From contig OZ245842.1 in NCBI GenBank assembly GCA_965228895.1, positions 4,768,001 to 4,832,000 of the forward strand: a stretch of 64,000 bases of DNA, in the 5' to 3' direction. The translations under genes and the position numbers were made by a program. Positions 18,039-60,437 of the stretch are shown here, piece by piece. The stretch comes from Alphaproteobacteria bacterium (GTDB taxonomy: Bacteria > Pseudomonadota > Alphaproteobacteria > SP197). The notes beneath the pieces were generated by a model, which saw nothing but the letters and a program-made list of their open reading frames with translations, was not told where the DNA came from and made no database searches. The stretch's first letter is position 1; the number at the start of each line of letters is the position of its first letter.

Positions 18039-18045
18039 CGTTGAC

Positions 18046-19116: not shown

Positions 19117-19190
19117 GATCGTGTCCTTTCCCCCATTGGACGTGGGTTGTTTCGATTGACGCCCGGGACCCATCGTCCCATGTACGCGCC

Positions 19191-21628: not shown

Positions 21629-21634
21629 GCCGTG

Positions 21635-22336: not shown

Positions 22337-22342
22337 TTTCGA

Positions 22343-23011: not shown

Positions 23012-23090
23012 GGCTGCGGTTTCCTTTCCAGGTATTCCTGAACGGGTGGAAGGATGGTGGTGCGCCTCTTTTTTGATTTCGTTTCTTTGA

Positions 23091-23717
23091 TCAGAACTCG
23101 ACCCCAGGCTGACCGCGCACGCCTTCGCGGAAGGGGTGTTTGACAAGCGTCATTTCGGTCACCAGGTCGGCCATCTCAATGAGCTCGGGTTTGGCGTTGC
23201 GCCCGGTGATGACGACATGCAGATCGGGCCGCTTTGTGGCAAGCGTATCCAGCACCTCGTCCAGGTCGACGTATTCATAGCGCAGCGCCACATTCAGCTC
23301 ATCCAGGATCACCATGCGGATCTCCGGATCGGCCATCATGTCCTTCGAGGCCTGCCAGGCGGCTGTCGCGGCGGCGATATCGCGCTCGCGGTCCTGGGTT
23401 TCCCAGGTGAAACCCTCGCCCATGATCTTGTGGGTCACGAGGTCGGGAAACTTGGCGAACAGCTTGTGTTCGCCGGTTTCGCGCCGGCCCTTGATGTACT
23501 GGACAACGCCAATCTTGTAACCGTGACCCAGGCAGCGCAGCGCCATGCCCCAGGCCGAGGACGATTTGCCCTTGCCCTTGCCGGTATGGACGATGATCAG
23601 GCCGCGCTCTTCGGTCTTCGACGCCATCATCTTGTCGCGCGCGGCCTTGCGCTTTTTCATCTTCTCGCGATGACGCTCGTTGACCTCTTCGGTTTCGACG
23701 ACGGTGTCTTCGCTCAT
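23091..23717 (-). CDS. cobO: Cob(I)alamin adenosyltransferase
   Basis: HTGKGKGKSS, GEGFTWETQ, ILDE, ITGRNA, KHPF; ATGA overlap with the cobN stop. Confidence 0.96.
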   Translation of the reverse strand: MSEDTVVETEEVNERHREKMKKRKAARDKMMASKTEERGLIIVHTGKGKGKSSSAWGMALRCLGHGYKIGVVQYIKGRRETGEHKLFAKFPDLVTHKIMGEGFTWETQDRERDIAAATAAWQASKDMMADPEIRMVILDELNVALRYEYVDLDEVLDTLATKRPDLHVVITGRNAKPELIEMADLVTEMTLVKHPFREGVRGQPGVEF

Positions 23718-26700: not shown

Positions 26701-27466
26701 CCGCAAGAAAACCGGCGACGGCCTCGGCGGCCAACGGCTCCTTCAAACTCTGACTGAAGATCGGCAAGGCGTTCAGACCCTGCGCGTCCAATGCCGTGAT
26801 CAGCGTGTCGATGGCCGCGAGGTTCGCAGCCTGAACCAGCGCCCGATAGAACACGATCGCAGCGACCGGCCGGTCGGCACGCCAATGGGACTTTAGCGCA
26901 TCGACCGAACCCGGCGTTTCACCCGGCCAGTAAAGACCGAAGCGCGGCAGCGGCTCCGGCTCGACCCACGCGGTCTCGAAGCCCGCGAGTGTCGACGCAT
27001 AGTCGAGAAACGCACCGGCATTGGCGAGGCCGCCGTGGATCAGATAGGCCCACAGGCGGTCATAGGTCCCGCCTTCCAGCGTCGAGAGCTCACGCAGTTC
27101 CGGATCATCCTTGTCGTCGCCGGGCAGAAGCGCCAGTGCGATACCCTGGCGGCGGCACAAGGCGCTCACCTGCTCGGCGCCATAGGACCAATAGGCGGCA
27201 CCGCCCAAGAGCCTGACCACCACCAGCTTGGCCTCGGCGATTACCGTCTCGACATAGGTATCGACGGAAAGGTGATGGGCAAGCTGCATGGGATTGGCGA
27301 GCCGCAGGCTCGGTCCGCCGTCGCCGCGCGCGCCACGCGCATTGGCGAGACAGGCGAGTTCCGTGTCGGCGGCAGACAGCACGACGATATCGCCCGGCGT
27401 TTGGCCGAGATCGATCGCCTCCGACCCATCGGAGATCGTGCCGGGCTGTGCCGCCAGCAGATGCAT
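23714..27466 (-). CDS. cobN: Cobaltochelatase large subunit
   Basis: MHLLAAQPG start, LANYPNRD, HLGKHGNLEWLPGK, PTGRNFY, HDLLDSDDYYQFEGG; 1250 aa. Confidence 0.98.
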   Translation of the reverse strand: MHLLAAQPGTISDGSEAIDLGQTPGDIVVLSAADTELACLANARGARGDGGPSLRLANPMQLAHHLSVDTYVETVIAEAKLVVVRLLGGAAYWSYGAEQVSALCRRQGIALALLPGDDKDDPELRELSTLEGGTYDRLWAYLIHGGLANAGAFLDYASTLAGFETAWVEPEPLPRFGLYWPGETPGSVDALKSHWRADRPVAAIVFYRALVQAANLAAIDTLITALDAQGLNALPIFSQSLKEPLAAEAVAGFLAEAAPSVILNGTGFALSSPGAARTPTPFDGADCPVLQVVFSGGTEAAWRDGMRGLAPRDIAMNVALPEVDGRLMTRAVSFKEAARFDERTQTNIVAYQPLPDRARWVARLAASWARLRAAPTGERKVALVLANYPNRDARIGNGVGLDTPASAAAVLTSLHAAGYDVTDAPEDGADLIEQLLAGPTNDLTARAWKRSDVVLSLGAYRNVFDSLPQEVRNQITERWGEPERDPFVAEGGFHLSVLTFGSIAVGVQPARGYNIDPKATYHDPDLVPPHGYLAFYAWIAGSFGAHAVVHLGKHGNLEWLPGKALALSETCFPEAVFAPLPHLYPFIVNDPGEGTQAKRRTAAVIVDHLTPPLARAESYGPLRELEALVDEYFEASQTDPRRLPVLARDILELCATTGLDADCGIGSGDTEADKLQKLDGYLCELKEMQIRDGLHVFGSAPVGDLCDALLVALARVPRGTGEGGDASLTRAIAADLDLGLDPLNADMGAPWTGERPGILADQTDDPWRTAGDTVERIELLALKLVREPKGCPADWPATRAVLDEIETRLAPAVAGSGAAEMAGLLTGLDGRFVAPGPSGAPSRGRPDVLPTGRNFYSVDTRAVPTPAAWTLGWKSATLLLERHVQDHGEWPRAVALSCWGTANMRTGGDDIAQALALMGVQPQWEPRSGRVTGFEIMPAGVLGRPRVDVTLRVSGFFRDAFPNLIDLVDSAARAVAALDEPADVNPLAVRTAEEAARLTRDGVDPDRARQMAGHRVFGSKPGAYGAGLQALIDEGIWENEGDLADAYLAWSGYAYGDGAEGEAQHNLFRDRLKQVEAVLHNQDNREHDLLDSDDYYQFEGGITAAVRELSGRQPVVYHNDTSRPENPAIRRLEEEIARVVRARVVNPKWIAGVMRHGYKGAFEMAATVDYLFGFAASARCVAHHHFDAVFEAYLLDPDVRSFLERANPAALGDIARRLAEAEARGLWRPRRNSTMPLLNTLAGTAEEDVA

Positions 27467-28509
27467 CAGGCAGCGCCTGCCACGGCGGCGGCGATGGCGT
27501 CGCGGTCGAGACCCTTCAGGCCGATCACGACCAGTTCGCTGCGCCGCACCTCATCGGCACCCCAGGGCCGGTCGTAATGGCGCGCGAAACGGCCGCCGAC
27601 GCCCTGGACCACATGGCGCATGGCCTTGCCGGGAATATCGAGAAAACCTTTGATGCGCAGCACGTCGTGATCGGCGACGGTCTTCTGCAATATGGCTTCC
27701 AGCGCCTCGGGATCGGTGATCGGGCCCAAGGTCAGCGTGAACGTATCGAAATCGTCGTGGTCGTGATCATCGTCCAGGTCATCGTGGTGCGAGTGACGGC
27801 TGTCCAGATCGTCCTCGGCGGCTGAAGCCAGGCCGAGCACGGCGACGGGATCGACGGCGCCCGAACGCGCCTTCACCAGTTTGACGGCATCGCGCCGGTG
27901 CGGACCGACCGCAGCGTGTACGGCGTCAAGCCCATCGTCGTCCAACAAATCGGTCTTGTTGATGATGATCATGTCGGCGCAGGCGACCTGTTCCTCGAAC
28001 ACCTCTTCCAGAGGGTTTTCGTGATCCAGGTTGTCGTCGGCTTCGCGCTGGGCCTGCACGGCGTCGGGATCGTCGGCAAAACGGCCGTCGGCAACGGCGC
28101 GCCCGTCAATCACCGCGACAACGCCGTCGACCGTCACCCGGCTTCTGACCTCCGGCCAGGTGAACGCCTTGACCAGGGGTTTCGGCAGGGCGAGCCCCGA
28201 CGTTTCGATGACGATGTGTTCCGGCGGATCGTCGCGGTCGATCAGCGTCTGGATGGTCGGCAGGAAATCGTCGGCGACCGTGCAGCAGATGCAGCCATTG
28301 GTCAGCTCGACGATATCCTCGTCCTCACAGCCTTCGACGCCACAGCCTTTGATCAGCTCGCGGTCGACGCCGAGATCACCGAACTCGTTGATGATAAAGG
28401 CAAAGCGGCGGCCGCCTGACTGCTCGATAAGGTGGCGGATCAAGGTCGTCTTGCCGGCGCCCAGGAAACCGGTGACGACGGTGGCAGGAATTTTTGTGGG
28501 AAGGCTCAT
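27466..28509 (-). CDS. cobW: CobW (COG0523 GTPase cobalt chaperone)
   Basis: GFLGAGKTT, NEFG, GCICC, ETSGLA, NKTDL, His/Asp-rich stretch. Confidence 0.96.
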   Translation of the reverse strand: MSLPTKIPATVVTGFLGAGKTTLIRHLIEQSGGRRFAFIINEFGDLGVDRELIKGCGVEGCEDEDIVELTNGCICCTVADDFLPTIQTLIDRDDPPEHIVIETSGLALPKPLVKAFTWPEVRSRVTVDGVVAVIDGRAVADGRFADDPDAVQAQREADDNLDHENPLEEVFEEQVACADMIIINKTDLLDDDGLDAVHAAVGPHRRDAVKLVKARSGAVDPVAVLGLASAAEDDLDSRHSHHDDLDDDHDHDDFDTFTLTLGPITDPEALEAILQKTVADHDVLRIKGFLDIPGKAMRHVVQGVGGRFARHYDRPWGADEVRRSELVVIGLKGLDRDAIAAAVAGAA

Positions 28510-28533
28510 GGAGGCAACAAACTCCGTTTGGGA

Positions 28534-29433
28534 TCAAAGCGCACGCCAACCACGGCCTTCATGACCGAAGCCGGCGACGGCGGGATGCAGGATTTCGGCC
28601 ATGATCTCGATCGAGTCGACGAGACCCGGGCCGGGGCGCGTGAAATAGCGGTTGGCGTCGACGGCGACCGCCGGCATGGCAAGCCCCGCCCAAACCGGTT
28701 CGCTCAACGCCTTGCGGGCCTCCGACGACGCCCGGTCCAGATCGAAACCGCAGGGCATGAAGACGGCGACCTCCGCATCGACCGCGGCGATTTCGTCGGT
28801 GCTCAGCAGCCGTGCCTTGTCGCCCGGTTCGGCCAGGATCGGTTCGCCGCTGGCAGCTTCCACGACATCACCGATCCAATGGCCCGAGGCCATCGGTGGA
28901 TCGCACCATTCGACCGCCAGGACGCGTTTGGACGGCTGGCCGAACAGGACGCCGCGAATGGCGCCGATGCGTGCTTCCAGTTCGTCGACAATCAGCGCGT
29001 CGCCGCCCAGCGTCGCCGCGACACGCCGCATATCGGCGAAGACATCGCCGAGCCGGGCGGGCGACAGTGAGATGATCTCGGGTCTCAGTCCGGCCATCTC
29101 GCCGACAACACGTTCGACCGCGGCAAGATCGATGGCGCAGGCCGCACAGCGGTCCTGGGTCACGATGTGGGTCGGGTGCAGCGCGGCGAGCGCCTCAAGG
29201 TCGAGGTCGTAAAGCGTCAACGCTTGGCGCGCTCGTTCGCGCACGGTGTTGTCGATCTCAGCGCTGGGTTTGGAGGAATCGATGCTGCTCGACGTCAGAA
29301 CCGTGCGATCACGGATCGTTTCGGGCCAATCGCATTCGTGGCTGATGCCGACGATCCGATCGGCCAGGCCGAGCGCAGCGACGATCTCGGTCGCCGCCGG
29401 CAACAGGCAGACGATGCGAAGCGCATCGGTCAT
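28534..29433 (-). CDS. BtuF-like cobalamin-binding protein without obvious signal peptide
   Basis: RIVCLLPAATEI, VGISHECD, TQDRCAAC, RPGPGL; ATGA overlap with cobP. Confidence 0.8.
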   Translation of the reverse strand: MTDALRIVCLLPAATEIVAALGLADRIVGISHECDWPETIRDRTVLTSSSIDSSKPSAEIDNTVRERARQALTLYDLDLEALAALHPTHIVTQDRCAACAIDLAAVERVVGEMAGLRPEIISLSPARLGDVFADMRRVAATLGGDALIVDELEARIGAIRGVLFGQPSKRVLAVEWCDPPMASGHWIGDVVEAASGEPILAEPGDKARLLSTDEIAAVDAEVAVFMPCGFDLDRASSEARKALSEPVWAGLAMPAVAVDANRYFTRPGPGLVDSIEIMAEILHPAVAGFGHEGRGWRAL

Positions 29434-29999
29434 GGACGACCCTCGCCCTTGAGCACCTGGGCCAGCCCGGCGGTGACGAAGACAACCTTGCCGGCCAGCG
29501 CCGCGACCTGTTGGTGCAGCCGGCCGGCGTGGTCGCGGAACTCCCGCGCAACCTTGTTGGCCGGCACGATGCCCTGGCCGACCTCGTTCGAGACGATGGT
29601 GACATGGCCACCGACCGTGCCGAGCACCCGGCACACGGCCTCGGCCTCCTTGATGACATCGCGTTCGGCCGCCATCAGATTGGCGAGCCACAAGGTCAGA
29701 CAGTCGACCAGAACGGCGCGGCCTTCGCCGGCGTTCTTGGAGAGCGCGCGCGCCAGGTCGAGCGGTTCCTCGACCGTCGTCCAGTGCTCGTCGCGCTGGG
29801 CCCGGTGCTGGGCGATGCGCCGCTGCATCTCCTGATCATGGGCTTCCGCCGTCGCCAGGTAGACCGGCGCCAGGCGCGACTCCAGGACGTGGTTCTCCGC
29901 CCACAGGCTCTTGCCCGAGCGCGCGCCGCCAAGGACAAAGGTCACGGCGGCGTTGCCGGCCGCATCGGGTCGGGGAATATCGGGACGAGGTACACTCAC
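29430..29999 (-). CDS. cobP: Adenosylcobinamide kinase/phosphate guanylyltransferase (CobP; CobU in enteric naming)
   Basis: LGGARSGKS, YLATA, VDCLTLW, SNEVGQG. Confidence 0.95.
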   Translation of the reverse strand: MSVPRPDIPRPDAAGNAAVTFVLGGARSGKSLWAENHVLESRLAPVYLATAEAHDQEMQRRIAQHRAQRDEHWTTVEEPLDLARALSKNAGEGRAVLVDCLTLWLANLMAAERDVIKEAEAVCRVLGTVGGHVTIVSNEVGQGIVPANKVAREFRDHAGRLHQQVAALAGKVVFVTAGLAQVLKGEGRP

Positions 30000-30045
30000 C
30001 GGGTCGCTTGCCTCCCTCCGAGGTCGTGACTGGCCCTAGCTGCCG

Positions 30046-30222
30046 CGCGAGGAGGTCTCCTGGCTCCGGGTCACCGGCTGGAAGGCCCCTTCCCGGTTCT
30101 TGAAGGAACCAGTGGGATCAAGCCTTCGGCCTCGCCGTTACAGTTGCGGGGGCAGCGCCGGTCTGGCGGACGATCCGCGTCACCGGCTTCCCTCTTCTCA
30201 CGTGCATCGACGAACCTAGCAG
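30046..30222 (-). ncRNA. Cobalamin (B12) riboswitch
   Basis: The minus strand reads AGGGAAGCCGGTG...CCGGCGCTGCCCCCGCAACTGTA...CCACTG...GGGAAGG...GAGCCAGGAGACCT (B12 box), directly upstream of cobP. Boundaries are approximate. Confidence 0.95.
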
Positions 30223-30238
30223 ACGAAGGGGGCGAGCG

Positions 30239-30880
30239 CTACGCCAGTTGTCCGCCGCCACCGTCGTTTGTTGGTGGCCGGTTCATCCAGGTAACACGCC
30301 ATACCGGCGAATGCCCACCCGACGCCGCGTGATGGTCGAGCCGGGTCAGCGACAGGTTCTCGGTTGCGAACTTCAGCGCGTCTTCCGGTTCGAGATCGAG
30401 GGCGACGCCGAGCGCGGCGCGGATGCTGCCGCCATGCGCCACGGCGATGATATCGCGTCCTGCATTCTCGTCATTCAGCCGATGGATTACGTGACCGACG
30501 CGGATCGTGAGGTCTACGAAACTCTCGCCCTCGGGTGGGCGATGGGTTGCCGGCGCCAGCCAGAAGCGGTGACTGTCGGCAAAGGCGTTGACCTCGTCAT
30601 AGGTCAGGCCCTGCCAGGCGCCGAAGCTTTGCTCGCCGAGATCCGGTTCCTCAAGCGGCATGATCCGGCGCCCCCCGGCCTCGGCAATCGCGGCGGCCGT
30701 CTGTTTGGTGCGCTTCAGATGACTGGTCACCCAGATGGCATCATCGGGCAGGATCGCGGCCAGCGCGCGATAGGCCTCCGGGTTCTCGATCGTGGCATTG
30801 GGGTCGGAAGCGCCATAGATCCGACCGTTGGTCTCGGTGACCGGCGCGTGGCGGATCCACCACCAGCGGGTGACCGTCAT
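30239..30880 (-). CDS. Histidine phosphatase, probable alpha-ribazole-phosphate phosphatase (CobC-like)
   Basis: IRHAP, SHLKRTKQTA, EQSFGAWQG, GES, VAHGGSIR; coupled to cobS. Confidence 0.85.
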   Translation of the reverse strand: MTVTRWWWIRHAPVTETNGRIYGASDPNATIENPEAYRALAAILPDDAIWVTSHLKRTKQTAAAIAEAGGRRIMPLEEPDLGEQSFGAWQGLTYDEVNAFADSHRFWLAPATHRPPEGESFVDLTIRVGHVIHRLNDENAGRDIIAVAHGGSIRAALGVALDLEPEDALKFATENLSLTRLDHHAASGGHSPVWRVTWMNRPPTNDGGGGQLA

Positions 30881-31668
30881 GTCGCCATCACGACGGCGAT
30901 CAGGACGGCGAGCTCGGTCGCCTGCTGCATGGCGCCCAGGACGTCGCCGGTCTGACCGCCGATCTGCCGGCCGGCGACAAAGATGACGACCGCCGCCGCC
31001 GCGGCGGCCAGAACCAGCGCCAGCACCCAGGTCCATGGCAACAGAAGGACGAGCGTCAAGAGCGCGGCGATGCCAAGCGCCATGATGGTAGCGTCGAAAC
31101 CGGGTATGCCGGCGCTGGCGCCCAGGCCGTCGGTGCGCGCCCGCGGCATCATGCGCATGGCGACCACGATCACGGCGCGCGACACCGCGCCCGCCGCAAT
31201 CAACGTCGCCAGCACTTCATAGGGATTGCCGATGCCAGCCAGCGCGCCGATCCGAGCGGCGATGACCAGCACCAGAGCAATCACGCCGTAACTGCCGATG
31301 CGGCTGTCGCGCATGATGGCGAGCTTCGACTCGCGGTCGCCGCCGCCGCCGAACCCGTCGGCAACATCGGCCAAGCCGTCCTCGTGCAACGCGCCGGTGA
31401 TCAGGATCGCCGTGCCGACCGCCAGGCAGGCGGCGAGCCACGGTCCGGTGCCGAGCCCATGCGCGATGACATAGACGACGCCAGCCGCCAGGCCGATCAC
31501 GGCGCCGACAATCGGGAACGACGCGGCCGCTTGCGCCAACGGTGCGGTCACGCTGCGACCACCCACAGGCAGGCGGGTCAGGAAACCAAAGGCAAGACGC
31601 AGGCGGTCGATCCAGTCGAGATCCGGATCGTCTTGCCCGCTATCATGGCCGGGGTCATCGTGGGACAT
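30877..31668 (-). CDS. cobS: Cobalamin synthase (CobS/CobV)
   Basis: FLTRLP, TGALHEDGLADVADG, IMRDSRIGSYG, GGQTGDVLGA. Confidence 0.96.
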   Translation of the reverse strand: MSHDDPGHDSGQDDPDLDWIDRLRLAFGFLTRLPVGGRSVTAPLAQAAASFPIVGAVIGLAAGVVYVIAHGLGTGPWLAACLAVGTAILITGALHEDGLADVADGFGGGGDRESKLAIMRDSRIGSYGVIALVLVIAARIGALAGIGNPYEVLATLIAAGAVSRAVIVVAMRMMPRARTDGLGASAGIPGFDATIMALGIAALLTLVLLLPWTWVLALVLAAAAAAVVIFVAGRQIGGQTGDVLGAMQQATELAVLIAVVMAT

Positions 31669-34804: not shown

Positions 34805-35263
34805 ATGAAGTCGAAGCGGTTATGGCTTGTCGTCGCCGATGGTTCACGCGCACGCATTCTCGCGCGCAATGGGGTGAACGGCGCCCTGGCTGAGATCGAA
34901 CAGCTCGATCACGCCGCGGCGCGCGCCCATGTCCGCGATCTCGTGACCGACGGCCAGGGCCGCACCTTCGACAGCGGCGGCCAGGGCCGCCATGCGGTGG
35001 AACCCACGACCGAACCCAAGGATCACGAGAAGACCGAGTTCCTGGACCATCTGGCCGAGCGCATCAACATGGCCGTCGCCAAGAACAAGTTGGACGAACT
35101 GGTGGTCATGGCGCCGGCGACCGCGCTCGGGCGCTTGCGCGATAAACTGTCGAAACAGGCAAGCCAGCGCGTCGCCGCCGATCTGGGCAAGGACCTGACC
35201 GGTCACACCGTGCGCGAGCTGGAAGCGCGGCTGAAGGAGCTGACCCGGCCCTGGAAGGACTGA
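34805..35263 (+). CDS. Host-attachment / baeRF12-like protein
   Basis: WLVVADGSRARI, GRTFDS, VMAP..LGRLR, KDLT; RBS GGAGG. Confidence 0.82.
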   Translation: MKSKRLWLVVADGSRARILARNGVNGALAEIEQLDHAAARAHVRDLVTDGQGRTFDSGGQGRHAVEPTTEPKDHEKTEFLDHLAERINMAVAKNKLDELVVMAPATALGRLRDKLSKQASQRVAADLGKDLTGHTVRELEARLKELTRPWKD

Positions 35264-35273
35264 GAGGCGCGGC

Positions 35274-35693
35274 GTGACCACGGGCGACCTGCCGACCTTC
35301 GAATGCGCGGTCGCCCTGATCGTCGCCGACAGCCGCGTCCTGCTCGGCCACCGGTCGAAGGACCGGCCGACCTATCCCGACGTCTGGGATCTCTTCGGCG
35401 GCCATGTCGAGGAAGGCGAGACGATGGAGGAGGCTCTTGCGCGCGAGCTCGACGAGGAGCTCGCGATCCGACCGACCGCGTTCGAACGCTTCACAGAACT
35501 CGCCGAACCGGAAGCCGGCCCCTATGGCCACAAGCGCTACACGATCTTCAAGGTGACGGCCTGGGACGGTCCCGGCCCGCGCCTGACCGGCGACGAACAC
35601 ACGGAGATCGCCTGGTTCACCCCCGACGAAGCCCGCAACGCTAACCTCGCCCACCGCGTCTACCGCACTCTGATCGCGGATGCGGTTGGGTGA
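35274..35693 (+). CDS. NUDIX hydrolase (MutT-like)
   Basis: Nudix box GGHVEEGETMEEALARELDEEL. Confidence 0.9.
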   Translation: MTTGDLPTFECAVALIVADSRVLLGHRSKDRPTYPDVWDLFGGHVEEGETMEEALARELDEELAIRPTAFERFTELAEPEAGPYGHKRYTIFKVTAWDGPGPRLTGDEHTEIAWFTPDEARNANLAHRVYRTLIADAVG

Positions 35694-35704
35694 AGGCCCC
35701 AGTG

Positions 35705-36151
35705 TCATCGCGCGACGTCACGCAACCAGCGGACGACGTCACCGTCTTCGTCAAACGTGCTCCACGGCCACGTGCCCCAGCCTACCGCGCGCGACTCCGC
35801 CTTGCCGCCGACCATGACGATGCGTTCGAGCTCGGCGCACTCATCTCGCTGATCGAAGTCGGGGGGCGGCAGGGCTTGCTCTCTCGCCAACGCCGTCGCG
35901 ATTTTCATCGTGTTGTTCCACACACCGCTGTCATCGAACAACACCATCGCCGGGCGCGCGACAACAGTGTTCGGCCCCGATAACCAGGCGACATCTCGGT
36001 CGCGATAGTTCAGCGTGTCAACGAACTCCAGCGCCGCCTCCGGAGTCATCGGACCGACAACAGACTGGTGAGAGGTGACAACGAGCGAGCCATTGTCGAC
36101 AAAGCATGGCGGGCGGAACGGGACCCAGCCGAACTGGAACCAGATGCCATG
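35705..36151. repeat. 447-bp direct repeat shared with 37878-38324 (3' halves of paralogs 4 and 2)
   Basis: Same length, no indels, and long identical runs (e.g. GCGCGACTCCGCCTTGCCGCCGACCATGACGATGCGTTCGAGCTC). Confidence 0.85.
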
Positions 36152-36511
36152 AGCGACGGAGACGATCGCCAGAAACGTCGCGCCGCGAACCCACGGCTTC
36201 CACCGCGCAACCGGCGCGGGCCACCTGCAATACCAGCCCACCGCGAACACGATAGCCGCGATGGAACCGAAAGCGCCGAACGGCGTCTCAAGGTAGGCCA
36301 TGAAGTAAAGCAAGACGAACACGTCCCACTTGCCGAACAGGACAAAAGCGAGATGGATATGTGTCGACGCGACAAGCACGAACGCCTTTGCATAGAAGAA
36401 GGTGGCAACGGCCGAGAGAAGAACGAACGCACCGATACGTAGCCGCCACCGCCAATCGCGTTTGGAAGGTCGACGGTGGTGTGGTCGATAGGAGGGGATG
36501 AGACCGATCAT
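35705..36511 (-). CDS. Membrane protein, putative immunity paralog 4 (cassette 1)
   Basis: Hydrophobic N-half, then the family motifs HxxWFxxGWxxFxPxC, GPM, RP, CxxLE, GWGxWPW. Confidence 0.8.
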   Translation of the reverse strand: MIGLIPSYRPHHRRPSKRDWRWRLRIGAFVLLSAVATFFYAKAFVLVASTHIHLAFVLFGKWDVFVLLYFMAYLETPFGAFGSIAAIVFAVGWYCRWPAPVARWKPWVRGATFLAIVSVAHGIWFQFGWVPFRPPCFVDNGSLVVTSHQSVVGPMTPEAALEFVDTLNYRDRDVAWLSGPNTVVARPAMVLFDDSGVWNNTMKIATALAREQALPPPDFDQRDECAELERIVMVGGKAESRAVGWGTWPWSTFDEDGDVVRWLRDVAR

Positions 36512-36526
36512 GTCCGCGACAGCCGC

Positions 36527-37291
36527 TTACGCGTCCCTATAGAGATCGCGAAGCCAGCGGGCGAACGAGCCGTCATCGTGGATTGTGTTCCACGGCCACA
36601 AGCCCCAGCCCGCCCGCCATAACACGGCCCGACGGTCAACAAGGGCGTTGCGTTCGATGGCGTGACAGACACCGTACTTAGTACCGGCTAGGTCTGCCGG
36701 CATCGGCCTAGCGCCGACATATTCGGAGATCCTTTCGACCCGCTGGCTATCCAACAAGCCGAAGACGGGTCTGACCAGAATGGTATGGGCGTCCGAACGG
36801 TGAACGGCATGTTCGCCCAAGCTCTCGATGAGTTCTCGCTCGAAGTGATCGGCATAGGCTGGATCCAGTCTTCCAACGAGTGTGTGTTGGTTGTTCATGC
36901 CGCCCACGCCCGCATTGTGCCGACAGGTCGGGTAAAACGTCGTCCAGCCAACCAGGAACCAACCGGTGTGCAAAACGACGATGACGGCCAACACAATCGT
37001 TGCCCGTTTCCAGGCCTTGAGCCTCGCCATGCCGAGCGGCAGCGGCAGATACCAACCCACGGCGAAGACAACCGCCGCGACAGTGGCGAACGCCGTAACC
37101 GGGAAGTTTAGGTATGCCCACAGATAGAATAGATAGAGGATCAGGCCCTTCACCACGTCGAGCCCGAACAAGGCAAGGAGCGGGACGGCAAGGACGGCAG
37201 CGATCAGCAGACGCCGCAACAGGCGGACGTGATTTGGATCGGGCGGCCATCGACCTTGGCTGATCCCCGGCAACAGATTGAGCCAGATCAT
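36527..37291 (-). CDS. Membrane protein, putative immunity paralog 3 (cassette 1)
   Basis: Start MIWLNL at an ATGA overlap with the upstream stop; HTGWFLVGWTTFYPTC, CHAIE, GWGLWPWN. Confidence 0.8.
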   Translation of the reverse strand: MIWLNLLPGISQGRWPPDPNHVRLLRRLLIAAVLAVPLLALFGLDVVKGLILYLFYLWAYLNFPVTAFATVAAVVFAVGWYLPLPLGMARLKAWKRATIVLAVIVVLHTGWFLVGWTTFYPTCRHNAGVGGMNNQHTLVGRLDPAYADHFERELIESLGEHAVHRSDAHTILVRPVFGLLDSQRVERISEYVGARPMPADLAGTKYGVCHAIERNALVDRRAVLWRAGWGLWPWNTIHDDGSFARWLRDLYRDA

Positions 37292-37877: not shown

Positions 37878-38651
37878 TCATCGCGCGATGTCACGCAGCC
37901 AACGAACGACAAGACCGCGCTCATCGAACGTGTTCCACGGCCACGTGCCCCAGCCCTTCGCGCGCGACTCCGCCTTGCCGCCGACCATGACGATGCGTTC
38001 GAGCTCCGCACACTGGTCGCTCCGATCAAAATCAGGGGGCGGCAGGCCTTGCTCCTGCGCCAAAGCCGTCGCGATCTTCATCGTGTTGTTCCAGACGCCG
38101 CCGTCATCGAACAGCGCCATCGCCGGGCGCGCGACGACAGTGTTCGGTCCCGACAACCAGGCGACGTCGCGGTCCCGCCAGTTTAAGGTGTCAACAAACG
38201 CCATTGCCGCCTCGGGCGTCATCGGACCGACAAGAGCGTGGTGGCCACCGAGCGACAACGGGCCATCACCCGTGCTGCAAGGCGGCCGGAAGGACACCCA
38301 GCCGAACTGGAACCAGATGCCATGCGCGACGACAACAACCGCCAAGACCGCGAAGCCGCGTCGCACTGGCGACAAACGCGCCAACAGCGGCGGCCAGCGC
38401 AGATACGTGCCCAATGCGAAGATGACCGCCATCAGCGTGCCGAAGGCGACAACAGGCGATAAAGCCAGTAGCAGGACGGGAAGAAAAAACATGCTGATGA
38501 CAAGGAGAGGATTGTTGCCCGGCCACATCCACACCGCTACCAGGCTGCCAACGAGCAAGACAACGACAGTTAGGTTGGACAGCCATCTAGACCGGAGTAT
38601 CCACCGGCCGCGTCGCACCTTCTCTCCGCTTGTCGTTTCGCGCCGCGCCAT
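37878..38651 (-). CDS. Membrane protein, putative immunity paralog 2 (cassette 1)
   Basis: HGIWFQFGWVSFRPPC, LVGPM, CAELE, GWGTWPWN. Start chosen at MARRETT. Confidence 0.8.
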   Translation of the reverse strand: MARRETTSGEKVRRGRWILRSRWLSNLTVVVLLVGSLVAVWMWPGNNPLLVISMFFLPVLLLALSPVVAFGTLMAVIFALGTYLRWPPLLARLSPVRRGFAVLAVVVVAHGIWFQFGWVSFRPPCSTGDGPLSLGGHHALVGPMTPEAAMAFVDTLNWRDRDVAWLSGPNTVVARPAMALFDDGGVWNNTMKIATALAQEQGLPPPDFDRSDQCAELERIVMVGGKAESRAKGWGTWPWNTFDERGLVVRWLRDIAR

Positions 38652-38669
38652 GTCCGCGTGAGCCCCCAC

Positions 38670-39437
38670 CTAGTCCTTGTGGAGGCTGAGCAGCCATTGA
38701 ACGAAGGCACCATCTTCGTCGAACGTGTTCCATGGCCAGTAGCCGTAACCGACAAGTCGTGAGTCGGCATGCCCTCTAGCCATAAGTGCCTCTTCTATCG
38801 CGCCGCAATGCCCTGTCGATACGCGACCGCCAAGATCATCGGCAATGTTGATCGTGTAGCGCTCGTGAACACTATTGGGAAAGAGGGCTATGGCCGGCCG
38901 TACCAGAACGGTGTGGTCGCCGACCAGCCGGGCCGCGTCCTCGCTGTACTGCCTCTGCAAGACATCGACGAAGCGCCGCGCGGCCTCGGCCTTCATCGGC
39001 CCCTTCAGCAGTGTTTCACTACCGTAGAACGGGTCGAAATTCCCGGAGCACGGCGGCCGGAACGGCATCCAGCCAGTGTGAAACCAAGCAGCGTGTAGAA
39101 CAAAGATGACGACCAGCCAGGTGAGACCGCGCATCGGCGGCCATTGCCGCGCCAGCATCGGTGGCCATCGCAGGTAACAACCCAATACGAAGATGAAAGC
39201 AGCCACGGCCCCGAAGGCCACATGAGGCAGTTCCGTAAAGGCCATGATCACCAGCATCACAAACGCGATTGGCAGAGGGAACATCGCGTCCGACCAGAAC
39301 CCGTTCGCCAAGACCAACACGACAATGATGAAACCGGCGCACAGAAGCCAAACTCGGTCGCGTTTGGAAAGCCGGTCGGGGCGCGGCCGACGACGTGGGC
39401 GACCGCCGTTGCCGGAAGGCGGGGAATCAGGTGTCAC
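38670..39437 (-). CDS. Membrane protein, putative immunity paralog 1 (cognate position, cassette 1)
   Basis: HAAWFHTGWMPFRPPC, LKGPM, CGAIE, GYGYWPWN; starts 24 bp after the stop of the lead gene. Confidence 0.8.
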   Translation of the reverse strand: MTPDSPPSGNGGRPRRRPRPDRLSKRDRVWLLCAGFIIVVLVLANGFWSDAMFPLPIAFVMLVIMAFTELPHVAFGAVAAFIFVLGCYLRWPPMLARQWPPMRGLTWLVVIFVLHAAWFHTGWMPFRPPCSGNFDPFYGSETLLKGPMKAEAARRFVDVLQRQYSEDAARLVGDHTVLVRPAIALFPNSVHERYTINIADDLGGRVSTGHCGAIEEALMARGHADSRLVGYGYWPWNTFDEDGAFVQWLLSLHKD

Positions 39438-39461: not shown

Positions 39462-40841
39462 CTACTCAAGTACCGGATGGGTTCCGACAGGTCCGTCGTC
39501 GGGTGCCGTCTCGTCGCGGTCCAGTTCCCGCCAATTGATCTTTGACTTGGATCGATCAGGTTGACCGTCGACGAGAGTGATGAACCCTGTTACGAGCCAC
39601 AATCTGCTGCTCTGGGTTCGAAACGGTTTGGCCAAATCGTAGACTTCGAGATCGCGCAAATCGCTGGCCGTAACGTTTGGCAATTTCAATGAGAGAGTCG
39701 ATACCCAGCCAGCCAAGCCGAAATCGTCTTCAAAATCGTAACGTTCGTCAAAACGCATATCGACCCGGCCCGCCACATAGATGACATCGCCTCGACGGGT
39801 GAACGACAGGTTTCCATAATCTTTGATCGCTGCCGCACCGAAGGCCGCTATGAAGTCACGTTCAAACCTCGTGACGGCCGGTGTTTCATCTCTCTTGCTA
39901 GCCAGAGAGAACACATTGGGTTTCCAAACTGCGTCCCAACGGACCCGGCTGCTACTTCCATCGGTCCCCAGCTTTATCGTTTCTCCGTCCTGCAACCTCA
40001 AAAACGGTTCGCCAAACACATCGTCGTGCGTTGCTCCCAAAAACCAGTTCTCATAGTGATTTCGAACAGTCTTCTCTGCAGATCGAAACAGCGAGAACCC
40101 ACGCAATAGGGACCATGGCATCGTGTATGTGCCTCCCTCGTTCTTGACGTAGCGATCGAGGAACTCACTTGACAAGATGAAGCCATCGTCTCGCCCAATC
40201 TCAACTATCTCTTTGACGGCATTGATAGTTTCCTCCAACTCCTCGCGCAGCTTGGGATCGTCAGGCGACCTTTGCTTATCTTCCAGGAGCATGTCTTCGA
40301 CAGTTTCACGCAACCGATCGAACGACACAGTCGGCAAGCCAGCTGCAGGACGAGTGCTGACCCGACGCGTTGCCGACAACGGCTGGTCAGCGGACGACGA
40401 CACTTTCCGTTGTCGAACAGGCGACGGCTTACCGCCCCGTCTGTTGGCATCGGCCAAAGTCGGTGTGGCGTCATCCGATGGCTCGCCCAACCTCCTGCGC
40501 CCCCCACCCGTCAAGATTGTGCCCTGCCGCACCGGCGGCGCCTCCTTCTCCTGCCCGAGGCGCAGGCGGCGTTCGCGGGCGGGGTCGAAGGGTTCGAGTT
40601 CGTCGACGAAGGGTTTGGGGCGGCCGATGCGCAAGGGCTTCGGCTTGCCGCTGGGGTCGTCGTAGACGCGGCGGAACTGGCGGTGGATGTAGGCGCGGTA
40701 GTCGGGGTCGCCGTCCAGATAGCGGGCGTCGCGCATGAGGTGCGCGAGCTGGCCGCTGAGGCGCTTCTCGATTTCGTCCTCGATATCTTCCCGGGTCTTG
40801 GCGCGCGGCCGGCGTTTCAGCGGATCGTCACGTTGCGGCAT
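39462..40841 (-). CDS. Putative toxin 1: conserved N-terminal module + low-complexity linker + colicin-M-like C-terminal domain
   Basis: GGAG RBS; full-length homolog at 59199-60437; C-terminal FG..I..YG.L.F.R.GD.I.V.G.V...DExYDFE. The ORF is secure; the function is inferred. Confidence 0.65.
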   Translation of the reverse strand: MPQRDDPLKRRPRAKTREDIEDEIEKRLSGQLAHLMRDARYLDGDPDYRAYIHRQFRRVYDDPSGKPKPLRIGRPKPFVDELEPFDPARERRLRLGQEKEAPPVRQGTILTGGGRRRLGEPSDDATPTLADANRRGGKPSPVRQRKVSSSADQPLSATRRVSTRPAAGLPTVSFDRLRETVEDMLLEDKQRSPDDPKLREELEETINAVKEIVEIGRDDGFILSSEFLDRYVKNEGGTYTMPWSLLRGFSLFRSAEKTVRNHYENWFLGATHDDVFGEPFLRLQDGETIKLGTDGSSSRVRWDAVWKPNVFSLASKRDETPAVTRFERDFIAAFGAAAIKDYGNLSFTRRGDVIYVAGRVDMRFDERYDFEDDFGLAGWVSTLSLKLPNVTASDLRDLEVYDLAKPFRTQSSRLWLVTGFITLVDGQPDRSKSKINWRELDRDETAPDDGPVGTHPVLE

Positions 40842-41052: not shown

Positions 41053-41667
41053 TCAGGCCCAGGCCGCGCGCACGGTCTCGCGGTGGCGGGCGAGCCACAG
41101 CAGCGCGATCACCGTGTGGGAGGCGACCAGGCGGCCGTCATCGGCCATGGCGATGGCGTCATCGGCAGCCATGACGTGGACGCGGATATCCTCGCCCTCG
41201 TCGTCGAGGCCGTGGATGCCGCCGGCGCCATCGGCGTCGACCTCGCCGAGGAAGACGTCGATTGCTTCGGTCACCGCGCCCGGCGACGGCAGAAAGCGGG
41301 TGATCGGTTTGAGGCGCTTGAGCTCGAGCCCCGCCTCCTCCATGACCTCCCGGCGCACGGTGGTCTCCGCGTCCTCGCCATCGTCGATGATCCCGGCGGG
41401 GATTTCGATCAGCCAGGGCGGGTCGACGGTCGGGATGGCGGCGACGCGGAACTGTTCGACCAGGACGACCTGATCCGTCTTGGGATCATAGGGCAGAACC
41501 GCGGCGGCATGGCCACGCTCGAAGACCTCAAGCGCGCGTTCTTCACCCCAGCCGCCGGCAAAAAGCGTGTGGCGGACATGCCAGCGATCGAGCTCGAAGT
41601 AGCCGCGATGACAGGGCTCGACCTTCAGCACCTCGAACTTCTTTTCGCCCATGATCCCGTTTCCCAT
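41053..41667 (-). CDS. nudF: ADP-ribose pyrophosphatase (NudF-like)
   Basis: ERGHAAAVLPYDP, VLVEQFR, EIPAG, RREVMEEAG, GLDDEGEDI. Confidence 0.88.
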   Translation of the reverse strand: MGNGIMGEKKFEVLKVEPCHRGYFELDRWHVRHTLFAGGWGEERALEVFERGHAAAVLPYDPKTDQVVLVEQFRVAAIPTVDPPWLIEIPAGIIDDGEDAETTVRREVMEEAGLELKRLKPITRFLPSPGAVTEAIDVFLGEVDADGAGGIHGLDDEGEDIRVHVMAADDAIAMADDGRLVASHTVIALLWLARHRETVRAAWA

Positions 41668-41822: not shown

Positions 41823-42353
41823 CTAGACAGAGACTCCGGCCGCTGCGAGCGCGGCGCGATAGACATCAGTGTCGTCGTCGCCGAAACAGCAAAAGATGAC
41901 TTCGCGCGGAGGATCGTGGATGGACAGAAAGTCGGTGACCTCATGCACCGCGATGCGGGCGGCGCGTGCGATCGGGAAACCGTAGATGCCGGTGCTGATC
42001 GACGGGAACGCGACGGTGGCGAGCCGGTTCTGGTTGGCGATCTCCAGCACCGAACGGTAGCAGTTGGCGAGCAATTGCGGTTCGTTCCTGCCGCCGCCAT
42101 GCCAGACCGGCCCGGCGGTGTGGATGACGTAGTCGGCGGCCAGATCATAACCGCCGGTCAAAACGGCGGTGCCGGTCGGGCAGCCACCGATGGCGCGGCA
42201 TTCCTCGTCCAGCTTCGGCCCGGCCGCGCGCCGGATCGCGCCGTCGACGCCGCCGCCGGCGATCAGGCCTTCGTTGGCCGCGTTGACGATAGCCGCGACC
42301 GCAAGCTTGGTGATGTCACCGTCGATCAGCCTGATGCGCTGGCTGAGATCCAT
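41823..42353 (-). CDS. Macro domain protein (YmdB-like O-acetyl-ADP-ribose deacetylase)
   Basis: GDIT, IVNAAN, GGGVDGAI, IHTAGP, FPSISTGIYGFP. Confidence 0.92.
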   Translation of the reverse strand: MDLSQRIRLIDGDITKLAVAAIVNAANEGLIAGGGVDGAIRRAAGPKLDEECRAIGGCPTGTAVLTGGYDLAADYVIHTAGPVWHGGGRNEPQLLANCYRSVLEIANQNRLATVAFPSISTGIYGFPIARAARIAVHEVTDFLSIHDPPREVIFCCFGDDDTDVYRAALAAAGVSV

Positions 42354-42490
42354 GCCCCTTCTCCCCGCTGGTAGTTTAGCGGCTCGAAACGGGTCATGCA
42401 CGCGCACGCCGCCACAGACTTTCGCAATGCCGAACGAACGCTTAGAGTCCCGCGCCCGCGCCGCGTCACGCCAACAAGAACAGGACCCCC

Positions 42491-57812: not shown

Positions 57813-58496
57813 TCAACATCGCGGCGGACGGTCCGAGCAATGGTAGAAGACGAGGTACCGCCCGACCGTCGAATTGTCGTCGATCACGTTGTAGGGCCAG
57901 TATCCCCAGCCCTCGCTGTGGCGGCTTGCTTCTTCGCCCTCCATCAGCATTTCCTCGATGAAGTCGCAATCTTGCGTTCTGCGCTCTGGTTGGACCGCGA
58001 TACCGCGCCTTTTGGCGATCCCTTCCGCGACTTGTCGAGAGACGTTCCAGAGATAGTCCGTTGGAATCATGCGAAGCGCAGGTCGAACGTCGATGTGACG
58101 GTCTCCGAAACGCCGGACGGAATTGGGGCCCAGCCATGACACGAAGAAGTCATGAAACTCGTCGGTTGCTTCGACCGTCATAGGCCCGATGAGCTCACTC
58201 CACTCTCTCCCATAGTGCTCCCGGTCGCGACACAATGGGTGGAACGCCGACCAGCCATGGGCGAACCAGATGACATGAAAGACGACCACCCATGGCAAAG
58301 CGAAGGCGACCCACGTGACTCTTGGCGGTGACATAAGCCACCGAAGAAAACGCCAGACCCACACAAAACCGCACCCGATCAATCGAAGAGGTGCGAAGGC
58401 GATTAGAATGGGTAACGCCAGAAACATGATGGCCGGCTTCGGTCTGTGGTCCGAGACACCATCACGTGCAGGAGACCGCCTATTGCCTCTCAACAT
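57813..58496 (-). CDS. Membrane protein, putative immunity paralog 6 (cassette 2)
   Basis: HVIWFAHGWSAFHPLC, LIGPM, VRPAL, CDFIE, GWGYWPYN. Confidence 0.8.
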   Translation of the reverse strand: MLRGNRRSPARDGVSDHRPKPAIMFLALPILIAFAPLRLIGCGFVWVWRFLRWLMSPPRVTWVAFALPWVVVFHVIWFAHGWSAFHPLCRDREHYGREWSELIGPMTVEATDEFHDFFVSWLGPNSVRRFGDRHIDVRPALRMIPTDYLWNVSRQVAEGIAKRRGIAVQPERRTQDCDFIEEMLMEGEEASRHSEGWGYWPYNVIDDNSTVGRYLVFYHCSDRPPRC

Positions 58497-58512: not shown

Positions 58513-59196
58513 TTACGGCGCGGAACCCGGCTTGTGGTAAAAGACGAGGTACCGCCAGAACGGTGATCGGAAGTCCTCGAATTCGTTGTAGGGCCAATAG
58601 CCCCAGCCGGTGCTGTAGCCTTCGGCCTTGCCGCCTTCCATCACCCTCTCTTCGACAAGGCTGCAGTCCGTGGGGCTGCGTCCTTGTTCGTCGACGATAC
58701 CCTGCTCGGCCGCGAGCTTTTGAGCGACCTTACCGCTGTGGTTCCACAAGAGATCGGTGGGCATCAGACGCAACGCCGGACGTACATCGATCTGATTTGT
58801 GCCAAAACGCCGAACGGAGTCCGGACCCAGCCATGCCACAAAGAAATCATAGTACGCATCCGTCGCCTCGACCGTCATGGGCCCCATGAGTTCCTGTCGC
58901 GGATACCCTTCCTCGCTCCAACACAACGGTCTAAAGGTGGCCCAGCCATGGGCAAACCAGACCACGTGGAAGACGACGATCCAGGGCAAGGCAAAGGCGA
59001 CCCAAACGACGCGCGGCGGCGTCAGAAGCCAATGCATGAAACGCCAACACCAGACAAAACCGCACCCGACCAGTCGGAACGGTTCGAACGCGATCAGAAG
59101 CGGCAGGGCCAGAAACATGATCGCCGGTTTCGGCCGTCTACAGGCCGGTCCATCTTCTCGTTTAGGCGAGCCGCGCTCCTGAGATTCGTCTGGCAT
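58513..59196 (-). CDS. Membrane protein, putative immunity paralog 5 (cognate position, cassette 2)
   Basis: HVVWFAHGWATFRPLC, LMGPM, CSLVE, GWGYWPYN; starts 2 bp after the toxin 2 stop. Confidence 0.8.
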   Translation of the reverse strand: MPDESQERGSPKREDGPACRRPKPAIMFLALPLLIAFEPFRLVGCGFVWCWRFMHWLLTPPRVVWVAFALPWIVVFHVVWFAHGWATFRPLCWSEEGYPRQELMGPMTVEATDAYYDFFVAWLGPDSVRRFGTNQIDVRPALRLMPTDLLWNHSGKVAQKLAAEQGIVDEQGRSPTDCSLVEERVMEGGKAEGYSTGWGYWPYNEFEDFRSPFWRYLVFYHKPGSAP

Positions 59197-59198
59197 CG

Positions 59199-60437
59199 CT
59201 AGGAGTGATGCCGGTCAAGGTCACGCCACGTAAACGTCGACAGCTCTGGGGCGGGAACCCCGTCGCGCAGCACGATCGTGCCAATCAGTTCCGCGAGGTG
59301 GCGCGATCGGAGTTTGAACTCGGCTGCCGGGCCCAATCTGGCAAGCGACTTCAGGTTAATGTTGGTTATCGTCGGTCCGTCAGAGAAGAACGTCGATACA
59401 AACATCGCCGTGAATCCTACGCCTTCAAAGTCGTAGGGTTCGTCTAGTTCAAAGGACACGACTCCGCTGACGTGGATTTCGTCTCCTTGTCGTTCGAATT
59501 GAAGCTGACCATAGCCTTTGATCTGCCCCGTTCCAAAGACAAGGGAGCTATCCAGATTCTCCTGGTTGATGAGATCGCGATCGAACGTTCTGGACCACCA
59601 GACGCTACTTCCCTCTCTCGGTTTGCCGATTTCAAGCACCTCTCCATCGGCAAGCTCCATGAAAGGCGCACCGATTGACTTGTCCTCCTCCAAACCGACT
59701 AACCAGTCTGTGAAGAGACTTCGCACCTCTACTTCGGCTGTGGCAGCGGGACCGTGGTCGCGGACCGTCGACCAGTCCAGGCCGACCACGCCACCCACTC
59801 CATCCAGGTAACGGCGCAGGTACTTCACCGCCATCGTCAAACCACGACGCTCACCAGCTCTAAGCAAGCCCTCGACGCCTTCGGCGATATGTCGGATCCT
59901 CTGCTCTCGTTCGGCCTTTGCGCTTCCCGCCTGTGGACCGCGAGGGAAGATTTGGCGTTCTTGCTTCAGGCCCGTTTCATCGGCATCTGTGTCCGGTTGA
60001 GCTTGGGCGGCCTCTGCGGCGACCTTGCGCTGCCGCAACTGCCCAGTGCCATCATCAAGACTGGCTCCGTCTCCCGAACCTCTCTGACGAGTTCGCCTCG
60101 CACGCGTAACGTCGGATGATGGAGTAACGGGCCGCTCAACCTCTTCCCCCCGCCTGATCCGCCGCTCGCGGTCGCGGTCGAAAGGTTCGAGGTCGGTGAC
60201 GAAGACATCGGGGCGGCCGATCCTGAGGCCCTCGCGCGGCTCGCCGGAGGGATCGTCGTAGACGCGGCGGTATTGGCGCTGGACGAAGTGGCGGTAGTCC
60301 GGGTCGTTCTTCTGGTTGCGCTCGTCGGTCATCAGCAGACGCAGATCGGCGCTTAAGCGCCGTTCGGTCTCGTCGGGGGTCTCGTTCTTCTTCTTGCGGC
60401 GCGGATGGGGCCGGAGGGGATCGTGCTTGAAACGCAT
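59199..60437 (-). CDS. Putative toxin 2, homolog of 39462-40841
   Basis: Start MRFKHDPL aligns with MPQRDDPL; shared DPDYR..QxRRVYDDPSG, LRIGRP, LEPFD..RERR and DExYDFE motifs. Confidence 0.65.
   Translation of the reverse strand: MRFKHDPLRPHPRRKKKNETPDETERRLSADLRLLMTDERNQKNDPDYRHFVQRQYRRVYDDPSGEPREGLRIGRPDVFVTDLEPFDRDRERRIRRGEEVERPVTPSSDVTRARRTRQRGSGDGASLDDGTGQLRQRKVAAEAAQAQPDTDADETGLKQERQIFPRGPQAGSAKAEREQRIRHIAEGVEGLLRAGERRGLTMAVKYLRRYLDGVGGVVGLDWSTVRDHGPAATAEVEVRSLFTDWLVGLEEDKSIGAPFMELADGEVLEIGKPREGSSVWWSRTFDRDLINQENLDSSLVFGTGQIKGYGQLQFERQGDEIHVSGVVSFELDEPYDFEGVGFTAMFVSTFFSDGPTITNINLKSLARLGPAAEFKLRSRHLAELIGTIVLRDGVPAPELSTFTWRDLDRHHS

Follow-up and report, generated by a model that had tools for sequence, protein, structure and literature searches.

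Two related toxin-like genes lie on the minus strand of the 64,000-nucleotide stretch of alphaproteobacterial DNA analysed here (GenBank assembly GCA_965228895.1, contig OZ245842.1, positions 4,768,001 to 4,832,000; hereafter the window). Gene 1 is an open reading frame (ORF) of 459 codons at 39462..40841, and gene 2, at 59199..60437, encodes 412 residues when read from MRFKHDPL. Both have the same three-part build, consisting of an N-terminal module (N-module), a variable linker and a C-terminal domain (C-domain), and a third paralogue lies outside the window at G000:C1:1037401-1038663 in the source genome. An alignment of 11 family members gave all three paralogues an N-module of ∼95 residues and a C-domain of ∼260 residues, joined by a linker that varies among the aligned proteins in both length and sequence. 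The N-module of gene 1 can be divided into residues 29–60 (SGQLAHLMRDARYLDGDPDYRAYIHRQFRRVY; 40662..40757, minus strand), which resemble the tail of T7-type phage scaffolding proteins, and residues 61–97 (DDPSG..LRIGRP..FV..LEPFD..RERR; 40551..40661, minus strand), which were delimited from alignments. The linker (approximately residues 98–193; 40263..40550, minus strand) is rich in arginine, serine, proline, glycine and alanine, and alignment columns 101–300 are mostly gaps or unconserved. The C-domain (approximately residues 194–459; 39465..40262, minus strand) was characterized by a search of representative proteins and a tally of Pfam partners. In gene 2, the scaffold-tail-like residues 29–60 are encoded at 60258-60353 on the minus strand.

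In a search of the 48,508 six-frame ORFs from the complete 5.53-Mb source genome, hidden Markov models (HMMs) of the two conserved parts retrieved exactly these three genes, the next-best E-values being 0.078 and 1.7. Searching for more genes with this N-terminus had been proposed in an earlier note on this DNA. The N-terminus quoted in that note (MPQRDDPLKRR...LAHLMRDARYLDGDPDYRAYIHRQFRRVYDDPSG..LRIGRP..FV..LEPFD..RERR) is the exact minus-strand translation of 40551-40841. The note had also singled out the first ∼100 residues as the best-conserved part of the two window proteins, and this was borne out by an identity of 55% over the first 97 residues as against 34% overall (BLASTP E-value 6e-64). 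In copy 2, the tyrosine of ‘RY’ is replaced by asparagine (DERNQ).

Scans with Pfam, NCBIfam, PHROG and PADLOC gave no family for the toxin-like proteins or for the membrane proteins encoded downstream of them, and neither these scans nor a profile search of PDB sequences identified a catalytic motif, family or structure for the toxin-like proteins. These proteins contain no hydrophobic segment (maximum 19-residue Kyte–Doolittle values of 0.83–0.94; 0.86 for gene 1) and are therefore predicted to have no signal peptide or membrane anchor.

The earlier note had likened the N-module to a motif at the end of the T7 scaffolding protein gp9. The motif was given correctly: the C-terminus of gp9, read from NC_001604, is ...EMIKAMSDPRYRTDANYRRQVEQKVIDSNF. 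We compared a profile of 26 N-module sequences with scaffold profiles using hhalign. Against 121 close relatives of T7 gp9, N-module residues 29–52 aligned with gp9 residues 276–298 at P = 7.7e-5, and none of 200 column shuffles reached the observed value of 34.2 (mean 12.3, maximum 19.8). A further 13 diverse scaffolds were gathered from public phage records and the genome of one relative. Against 14 diverse full-length scaffolds, N-module residues 29–60 aligned with residues 276–306 of the 307 in T7 gp9 (P = 1.3e-6, probability 90.7%), and against five marine-type scaffolds the P-value was 6.4e-7; the probability was about 91–92% across both full-length sets. The inclusion of diverse scaffolds thus lengthened the alignment to residues 29–60 against the last 31–35 scaffold residues, now taking in the final F-x-[KR]-[LV]-Y. 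In a second set of column shuffles, 0/200 came near the observed 45.9 (maximum 19.6). Unrelated profiles from the same loci, namely those of the C-domain and the membrane-protein family, gave P-values of 0.2–0.78 against the scaffolds. When multiplied by the ∼39,000 PHROG families, the N-module P-values become about 0.03–0.05, an arithmetic of our own that takes the place of a profile search over all families.

The part of the scaffold that is matched is also its most conserved 30-residue block (0.55, compared with 0.30–0.49 elsewhere). The pattern shared by the tails is [AL]M-x-D-x-R-Y-x(2-5)-D-x-x-[YF]-x(3)-V-x(3)-[FLV]-x-[KR]-x-[YF]. D38, R40, Y41, Y48 and F56 of the N-module are conserved in the scaffolds as well as in the toxin-like family. 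The best scaffold matches come from marine podophages (Pelagibacter, Methylophilales and Roseobacter phages) and from a T7-type contig of another genome, G002, of the same bacterial family. In the window’s copies the turn is longer by one residue and the match is at the weaker end of the range, whereas the family members P0072, P0025 and P0021 have the scaffold spacing. All hhalign alignments end at residue 60. Residues 61–97 are as conserved as the scaffold-like half, and no counterpart to them was found in scaffolds or in any family searched. The likeness claimed for the N-module therefore stands beyond chance at the profile level for residues 29–60, and does not extend to the whole 97-residue module.

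Searches of whole genomes and phage records, which were not directed at the scaffold gene, gave a similar picture. The only match of the N-module profile A5 at E ≤ 10 in the 4.3-Mb genome G002 covers the last 40 codons of its sole PF05396 gene (E = 0.004, 19.1 bits, profile positions 23–60). Of 13 whole T7-type phage records, five were matched, once each, always in the scaffold tail and nowhere else: Pelagibacter phage EXVC031P (2.5e-5), Methylophilales phage MEP301 (3.3e-4), Roseobacter phage CRP-125 (5.5e-4), Prochlorococcus phage P-SCSP1i (0.003) and Vibrio phage ICP3 (0.013; E-values in parentheses). Taken together, the scaffold tail was the only match of the N-module profile in six of 14 T7-type sources. 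Over 33 genomes of the order, the profile matched 16 places at E ≤ 5, 12 of which were the toxin-like genes; the best of the other four was the G002 scaffold tail and the remaining three were at noise level (E-values of 0.03–0.07). One of these three, a weak A5 match at G000:2813786-2813968, was discarded as an antisense frame of a 570-residue gene. Conversely, an HMM for which 14 phage tails were the sole input, run over 157 family proteins, found every one of the 24 that contain the stretch (E-values of 6e-6 to 0.31) and none of the 131 that have the C-domain only (best 0.75).

The G002 genome itself lacks the N-module. Its PF05396 gene (50.9 bits) is on a 32.9-kb contig (C241; loci L038 and L044) with a T7-like order of portal, PF05396 scaffold, 272-residue capsid and tail tube genes and large internal proteins, and the nearest scaffold to its own comes from a Pelagibacter podophage (36% identity). 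The contig is either a prophage or a co-binned phage. Judged from these comparisons, the similarity of the N-module to T7-type scaffold tails appears specific, and a chance origin of the match is very unlikely. The resemblance is confined to a 32-residue element, and the toxin-like protein is not thereby a member of the scaffold family.

An exhaustive profile search with the C-domain returned 487 representative clusters at E ≤ 1e-3, the best 150 of which were listed; the counts of family proteins given here refer to the matches listed. Most C-domain relatives match only profile positions ∼160–430 and have unrelated N-terminal parts. The consensus of the domain is ...AAxLLxHYLxGxG...FExW...DG...GxFxxxRxGxxIxxxGxVxxxxxDxYDF.... 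Of the 157 family proteins, 21 contain both conserved parts, 131 the C-domain only and five the N-module only, the last being fragments of 96–188 residues; five further N-module proteins from the clustered-protein search also have the C-domain. The N-module is therefore always found on the same C-domain, in 26/26 full-length proteins as well as in 6/6 metagenome genes that could be judged, so it does not serve as a leader that moves between different toxins. It is instead confined to a single clade of the C-domain, which is itself portable.

To the C-domain itself we ascribe a putative toxic activity on the strength of its partners. Among 147 relatives of at least 300 residues, 98 were scanned with Pfam, and the domains found alongside the C-domain were PG_binding_1 (15 proteins), eCIS_core (8), Phage_Mu_F (2), Peptidase_M23 (1) and LysM (1). 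MuF is a module of proteins carried in phage heads (PMC5576092), and the core domain of extracellular contractile injection systems (eCIS) is a module of proteins carried in phage-tail-like injection particles (PMC8213781). The fusions to these two modules support the label of cargo or toxin for the C-domain, and they lend weight to the idea in the earlier note of a system conceptually like MuF toxins. The cell-wall modules among the partners hint at an envelope target. The C-domain may already be among the toxin domains catalogued in the publications on MuF and eCIS. As separate observations, P0036 (in the P0036–P0159 set) has a helix-turn-helix/RepB-like N-terminal region on the C-domain, and P0120 is a 1281-residue M23 peptidase protein with the C-domain.

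Both window genes are followed on the same strand by paralogous membrane-protein genes, four after gene 1 and two after gene 2. Directly after gene 1 is I1a (255 residues; 38670..39437, minus strand), the candidate cognate immunity protein, in which the invariant cysteines are C130 and C211. It is followed by three genes on the minus strand, I1b (263 residues; 37878..38669), I1c (36527..37288; the start is uncertain, with the ORF open up to 37483) and I1d (268 residues; 35705..36511). The genes after gene 2 are I2a (58513..59196) and I2b (57813..58496), both of 227 residues and on the minus strand. I1b, I1c, I1d, I2a and I2b were assigned by alignment and the family HMM; the ORF at 35106-35708 showed no relation to the family in the alignment and was not counted as a member. 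The proteins consist of N-terminal hydrophobic helices and a C-terminal domain of ∼130 residues with two invariant cysteines and a GWGxWPW motif.

The association of the two gene families is consistent. An ORF matching the membrane-family HMM was found directly 3′ of 9/9 toxin-like genes (the window, the third source locus and five loci in other genomes), and on nine short metagenome contigs a member was found 3′ of five of the six toxin-like genes with room downstream. The copies in the source genome are each followed by one to four such genes and runs elsewhere reach five, and all seven family members of the source genome adjoin toxin-like genes. At loci L017 and L053, tandem cassettes are present on one contig, with two toxin-like genes arranged head to tail, each with its own membrane-protein gene. 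At the third source locus, the membrane protein has a one-helix form; this and the cysteine pair suggest that the domain faces outwards, in which case the target of the toxin would lie in the envelope. Most likely, the membrane proteins are of the immunity type and would protect against the toxin, whose C-domain most likely has the cell envelope as its site of action.

The cassettes are located in varied chromosomal surroundings. In the window the neighbours are NUDIX, Macro, permease and cobalamin genes, and elsewhere they include genes for aconitase, SPFH/NfeD, dienelactone hydrolase, CobT, EamA and SDR proteins; 10/10 neighbours scanned belonged to non-phage families. Because the surroundings differ from locus to locus and are of the housekeeping type, the cassette is self-contained and not phage-borne, and no conserved third gene was found beside it across its different locations. 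The NUDIX gene (41053-41667) and the Macro-domain gene (41823-42407) upstream of gene 1, both on the minus strand, are absent from copies 2 and 3 and were rejected as parts of the system; a link to ADP-ribose chemistry through them is conceivable. A NUDIX gene is also present upstream in the metagenome locus L045, which we read as synteny rather than function. The window’s cobalamin biosynthesis neighbourhood covers 12734-31668 and includes CobN (23714-27466), CobW (27466-28509) and CobS (30877-31668) genes, with a histidine phosphatase gene at 30239-31036, and a CobT gene adjoins the cassette in the metagenome locus L049.

The N-module is rare. Two word-indexed searches of 5.8 billion clustered proteins gave 10 and 12 matches, and the module was otherwise seen at five loci in three alphaproteobacterial metagenome-assembled genomes among 185,579 species genomes and on nine metagenome contigs. 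Within the window’s order its distribution is patchy, with 6/33 genomes carrying it.

The source genome was searched for a particle that the N-module might bind. It is a single contig of 98.7% completeness, and searches with family models found no PF05065 (HK97-type capsid), PF04860 portal, PF04233 MuF or T7 scaffold gene in it, and no TssC of the type VI secretion system (T6SS), phage-type sheath or eCIS_core. It therefore has no cluster like the RcGTA gene transfer agent (GTA) and no known injection device, and with no hydrophobic segment in the toxin-like proteins there is no known export route at hand. A single prophage head module of lower G+C content (55–60%) was found at 2.578–2.592 Mb (G000:C1:2578800-2591776, locus L035), with genes for a terminase, a portal-like protein (phrog_332), an acidic scaffold-like protein of 198 residues and a major head protein (phrog_1357). 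An internal stretch of the scaffold-like protein, ...AFAMRYRDPDGFKKVV..., is faintly motif-like, and the protein gave no match to the N-module profile. Two further terminase matches in the genome are remnants.

The resident capsid was rejected as a general partner, given that GTA- and T7-type genes are missing and the prophage capsid is strain-specific. The suggestion that the module loads a toxin into particles of a resident prophage or GTA is thus not supported by the contents of the genome. An encapsulin shell was also rejected, with PF04454 (family 1) in 0/6 module-bearing genomes; family-1 encapsulin genes are present in two genomes of one genus of the order, G002 (contig C80) and G003 (contig C352), with E-values of 1e-86 to 2e-88, and neither of these genomes has the N-module. 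As module-bearing genomes have no PF05396 gene, no encapsulin and no conserved capsid, any capsid partner would have to come from an infecting phage.

Several described systems share features with the genes in the window. The T7 gp9-type scaffolds (PF05396) are alike in that their last ∼32–35 residues align with N-module residues 29–60, at the profile level only. They differ in that the PF05396 model does not match the toxin-like proteins, which also lack an acidic or coiled-coil body, that the toxin-like gene is chromosomal and not placed between portal and capsid genes, and that the motif is N-terminal and followed by a linker and a 260-residue domain. In effector/immunity pairs that act in the periplasm, such as the cell-wall effectors of T6SS, a toxin without a signal peptide is made in the cytoplasm, the gene for its protector adjoins the toxin gene and further protector genes form arrays. 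The window genes are similar in the missing signal peptide, the adjacent putative protector in the membrane or periplasm and the extra putative protector genes; in contrast to such pairs, there is no T6SS in the source genome and the domains belong to no described family. Engineered P22 fusions keep the scaffold tail at a free C-terminus, unlike the toxin-like proteins. They draw a cargo into procapsids on the coat-binding part of the scaffold, and the toxin would be their natural counterpart, but they concern another phage family and are not a natural system. The loading of P22 capsids with cargo fused to a scaffolding protein is well established as an engineering approach (PMC11626933).

Phage heads have been proposed as the vehicle of the MuF toxins of temperate phages (Jamet et al. 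2017, PMC5576092). They likewise have a toxin domain borne in the head by an N-terminal head-protein module, and the same C-domain occurs on MuF in the 2/98 relatives noted above. However, MuF toxins have their genes in phages and attach to the portal, whereas the window toxin is host-encoded, would bind the coat and has no MuF domain. Toxins associated with eCIS (DUF4157/eCIS_core; PMC8213781, PMC11297309), as these sources describe them, also combine a loading module with a C-terminal toxin, and eCIS_core accompanies the C-domain in 8/98 relatives, but the source genome has neither an eCIS_core nor a sheath gene. As in the polymorphic toxin systems described by Zhang et al. (2012, PMC3482391), the C-domain is shared across different N-terminal modules (131/157 proteins are without the N-module); unlike in those systems, the N-module was not seen with an alternative C-terminal toxin domain among the proteins listed. 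In polymorphic toxin systems the toxin gene is directly followed by one for immunity; here a member of the membrane family, with a predicted protective role, is in that position (9/9 and 5/6).

We tentatively favour the reading that the N-module is a coat-binding tag derived from a scaffold tail, which takes an envelope-acting toxin into the heads of T7-like phages; we regard this as possible, short of probable. Under this reading, the toxin would be made in the cytoplasm with no signal peptide, its C-domain would act on the envelope and the downstream membrane proteins would neutralize it. Residues 29–60, derived from or closely mimicking a T7-type scaffold tail, would attach to the coat shell of a T7-like podophage from the inside, as scaffold tails presumably do, and procapsids would thereby take up the toxin, tethered through its flexible linker. 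Released with the virions, the toxin would enter the envelope of the next cell that the particle attacks, while sibling cells would be protected by their own immunity arrays. Coat binding, packaging and delivery are all predictions of this scheme. In its most specific version, the stolen tail serves as a boarding pass, with the toxin packed in place of some of the scaffold and shot into the envelope of the next cell, which we consider somewhat unlikely. The same contact with the coat might just as well slow head assembly down.

A number of observations weigh against the tentative packaging scheme. The match is only 32 residues long, and it was missed by several searches. Pfam and PHROG hmmscan assigned the toxin-like proteins to no scaffold family (and to no Pfam family at E ≤ 0.1), the PF05396 model had 0 matches at E ≤ 10 in the whole source genome (model cut-off 27.1 bits), and in 50,697 phage records searched by tblastn the N-module had three matches, all at chance level (E-values of 3–4) and none in a scaffold. 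The profile search of PDB sequences, which contain no chain for T7 gp9, gave only a chance-level chorismate mutase match (E = 0.9). The N-module profile had no match in the other eight of the 13 phage records, T7 itself included. Over the 33 genomes, the experiment-wide expectation of the G002 match (E = 0.004) is ∼0.13, so the force of that result is in where the match falls and not in its score. In the reverse direction, the phage-tail HMM ranked the window copies only 9th and 13th among the 48,508 source-genome frames (E-values of 8 and 13) and the third copy 473rd; earlier HMMs of this kind did worse, and a single scaffold tail used as the query gave nothing significant in the source genome.

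The biological setting is also unfavourable in several respects. No GTA-type capsid or portal is present in the source genome, and no capsid partner is conserved in module-bearing genomes, 0/6 of which have a PF05396 gene; the capsid locus that the earlier note had proposed to look for was accordingly not recovered in conserved form. The prophage capsid of the source genome is unlike T7 gp10 and was found in 1/33 genomes of the order, being absent from the other 32 and thus from the other five module-bearers. The cassettes sit amid housekeeping genes, and the N-module, searched as one peptide pattern, was absent from 2.9 million viral contigs. The topology is reversed, since the tail is a free C-terminus in scaffolds and here is near the N-terminus with 400 residues after it, and the benefit to a host that is being lysed is not obvious. 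Moreover, we take the gp9 tail to be the coat-binding part of the scaffold by analogy with P22. For T7, helical density under the shell has been assigned to the scaffold, with no residues named (PMC12005531, PMC7196576).

Three other explanations must be set beside the packaging scheme. That two short charged helical segments match by chance and were selectively remembered would fit the shortness of the match, its being missed by HMMER-level family scans and the failure to recover it from the scaffold side in the source genome. It is highly improbable in view of the hhalign P-values of 1e-6 to 6e-7, with 0/400 shuffles coming near, the location of 6/6 whole-source matches on the scaffold tail with no off-target match in those sources, and the clean split made by the phage-tail HMM (24/24 against 0/131). 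Where the resemblance is accepted, the helix pair may have been borrowed, or may have converged, and may now have nothing to do with capsids, serving instead as an export leader or chaperone-binding region or as an in-cell regulator of the toxin. The shared residues (M, Y, Y, V/I, F, Y and the D-x-R-Y turn) may do no more than form a small hairpin, and the 37 further conserved residues (61–97) without a scaffold counterpart would be better explained in this way. The reversed topology, the lack of a conserved capsid partner in module-bearing genomes and the tie of the N-module to one C-domain clade (26/26; 6/6), as expected under co-evolution, point in the same direction. However, there is no positive sign of another partner, with T6SS, sheath and eCIS markers absent and no conserved third gene, and the conserved positions coincide with those of distant scaffolds, for which a shared binding task is the simplest reason. 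We judge this explanation doubtful, if still a reasonable candidate.

An anti-phage role draws on the same evidence for a scaffold-tail mimic. The mimic would bind the coat of an infecting T7-like phage and either spoil assembly, as a decoy, or trigger the C-domain to cause abortive infection, as a sensor. Capsid proteins trigger several defence systems. The genes are host-encoded in housekeeping surroundings with none in phages, the absence of a resident T7-type element from module-bearing genomes means that the partner must come from outside, and a 32.9-kb T7-like contig was assigned to the bin of a genome from the same bacterial family. Nevertheless, no PADLOC family was matched, and the arrays of two to five membrane-protein paralogues are more in keeping with the sets of immunity genes that accompany competition toxins than with a lone antitoxin. 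The partners of the C-domain (MuF, the eCIS core and cell-wall binding modules) point to delivery into other cells, and an ever-present membrane immunity protein would blunt a suicide effector. A decoy or sensor is therefore, in our view, unlikely. Overall, the interpretation of the earlier note is partly supported.

Phage-encoded head toxins (MuF) and engineered scaffold fusions are already known, and a brief literature search found no natural scaffold-tail toxin in print. If the N-module does bind the coat, no earlier case would be known of a cargo tag that nature has copied from a scaffolding protein. Through a host gene exploiting the best-conserved contact in T7-like head assembly, bacterial competition toxins would be linked to the phages that infect the producer, and the module would provide a compact natural tag for filling podophage capsids. 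Were the boarding-pass version true, ordinary phages would carry a host-encoded weapon, effective even on cells that destroy phage DNA. Whatever the role of the N-module, the C-domain, with its 487 clusters and no family name, and its membrane partner constitute a sizeable, uncharacterized pair of the toxin/immunity type.

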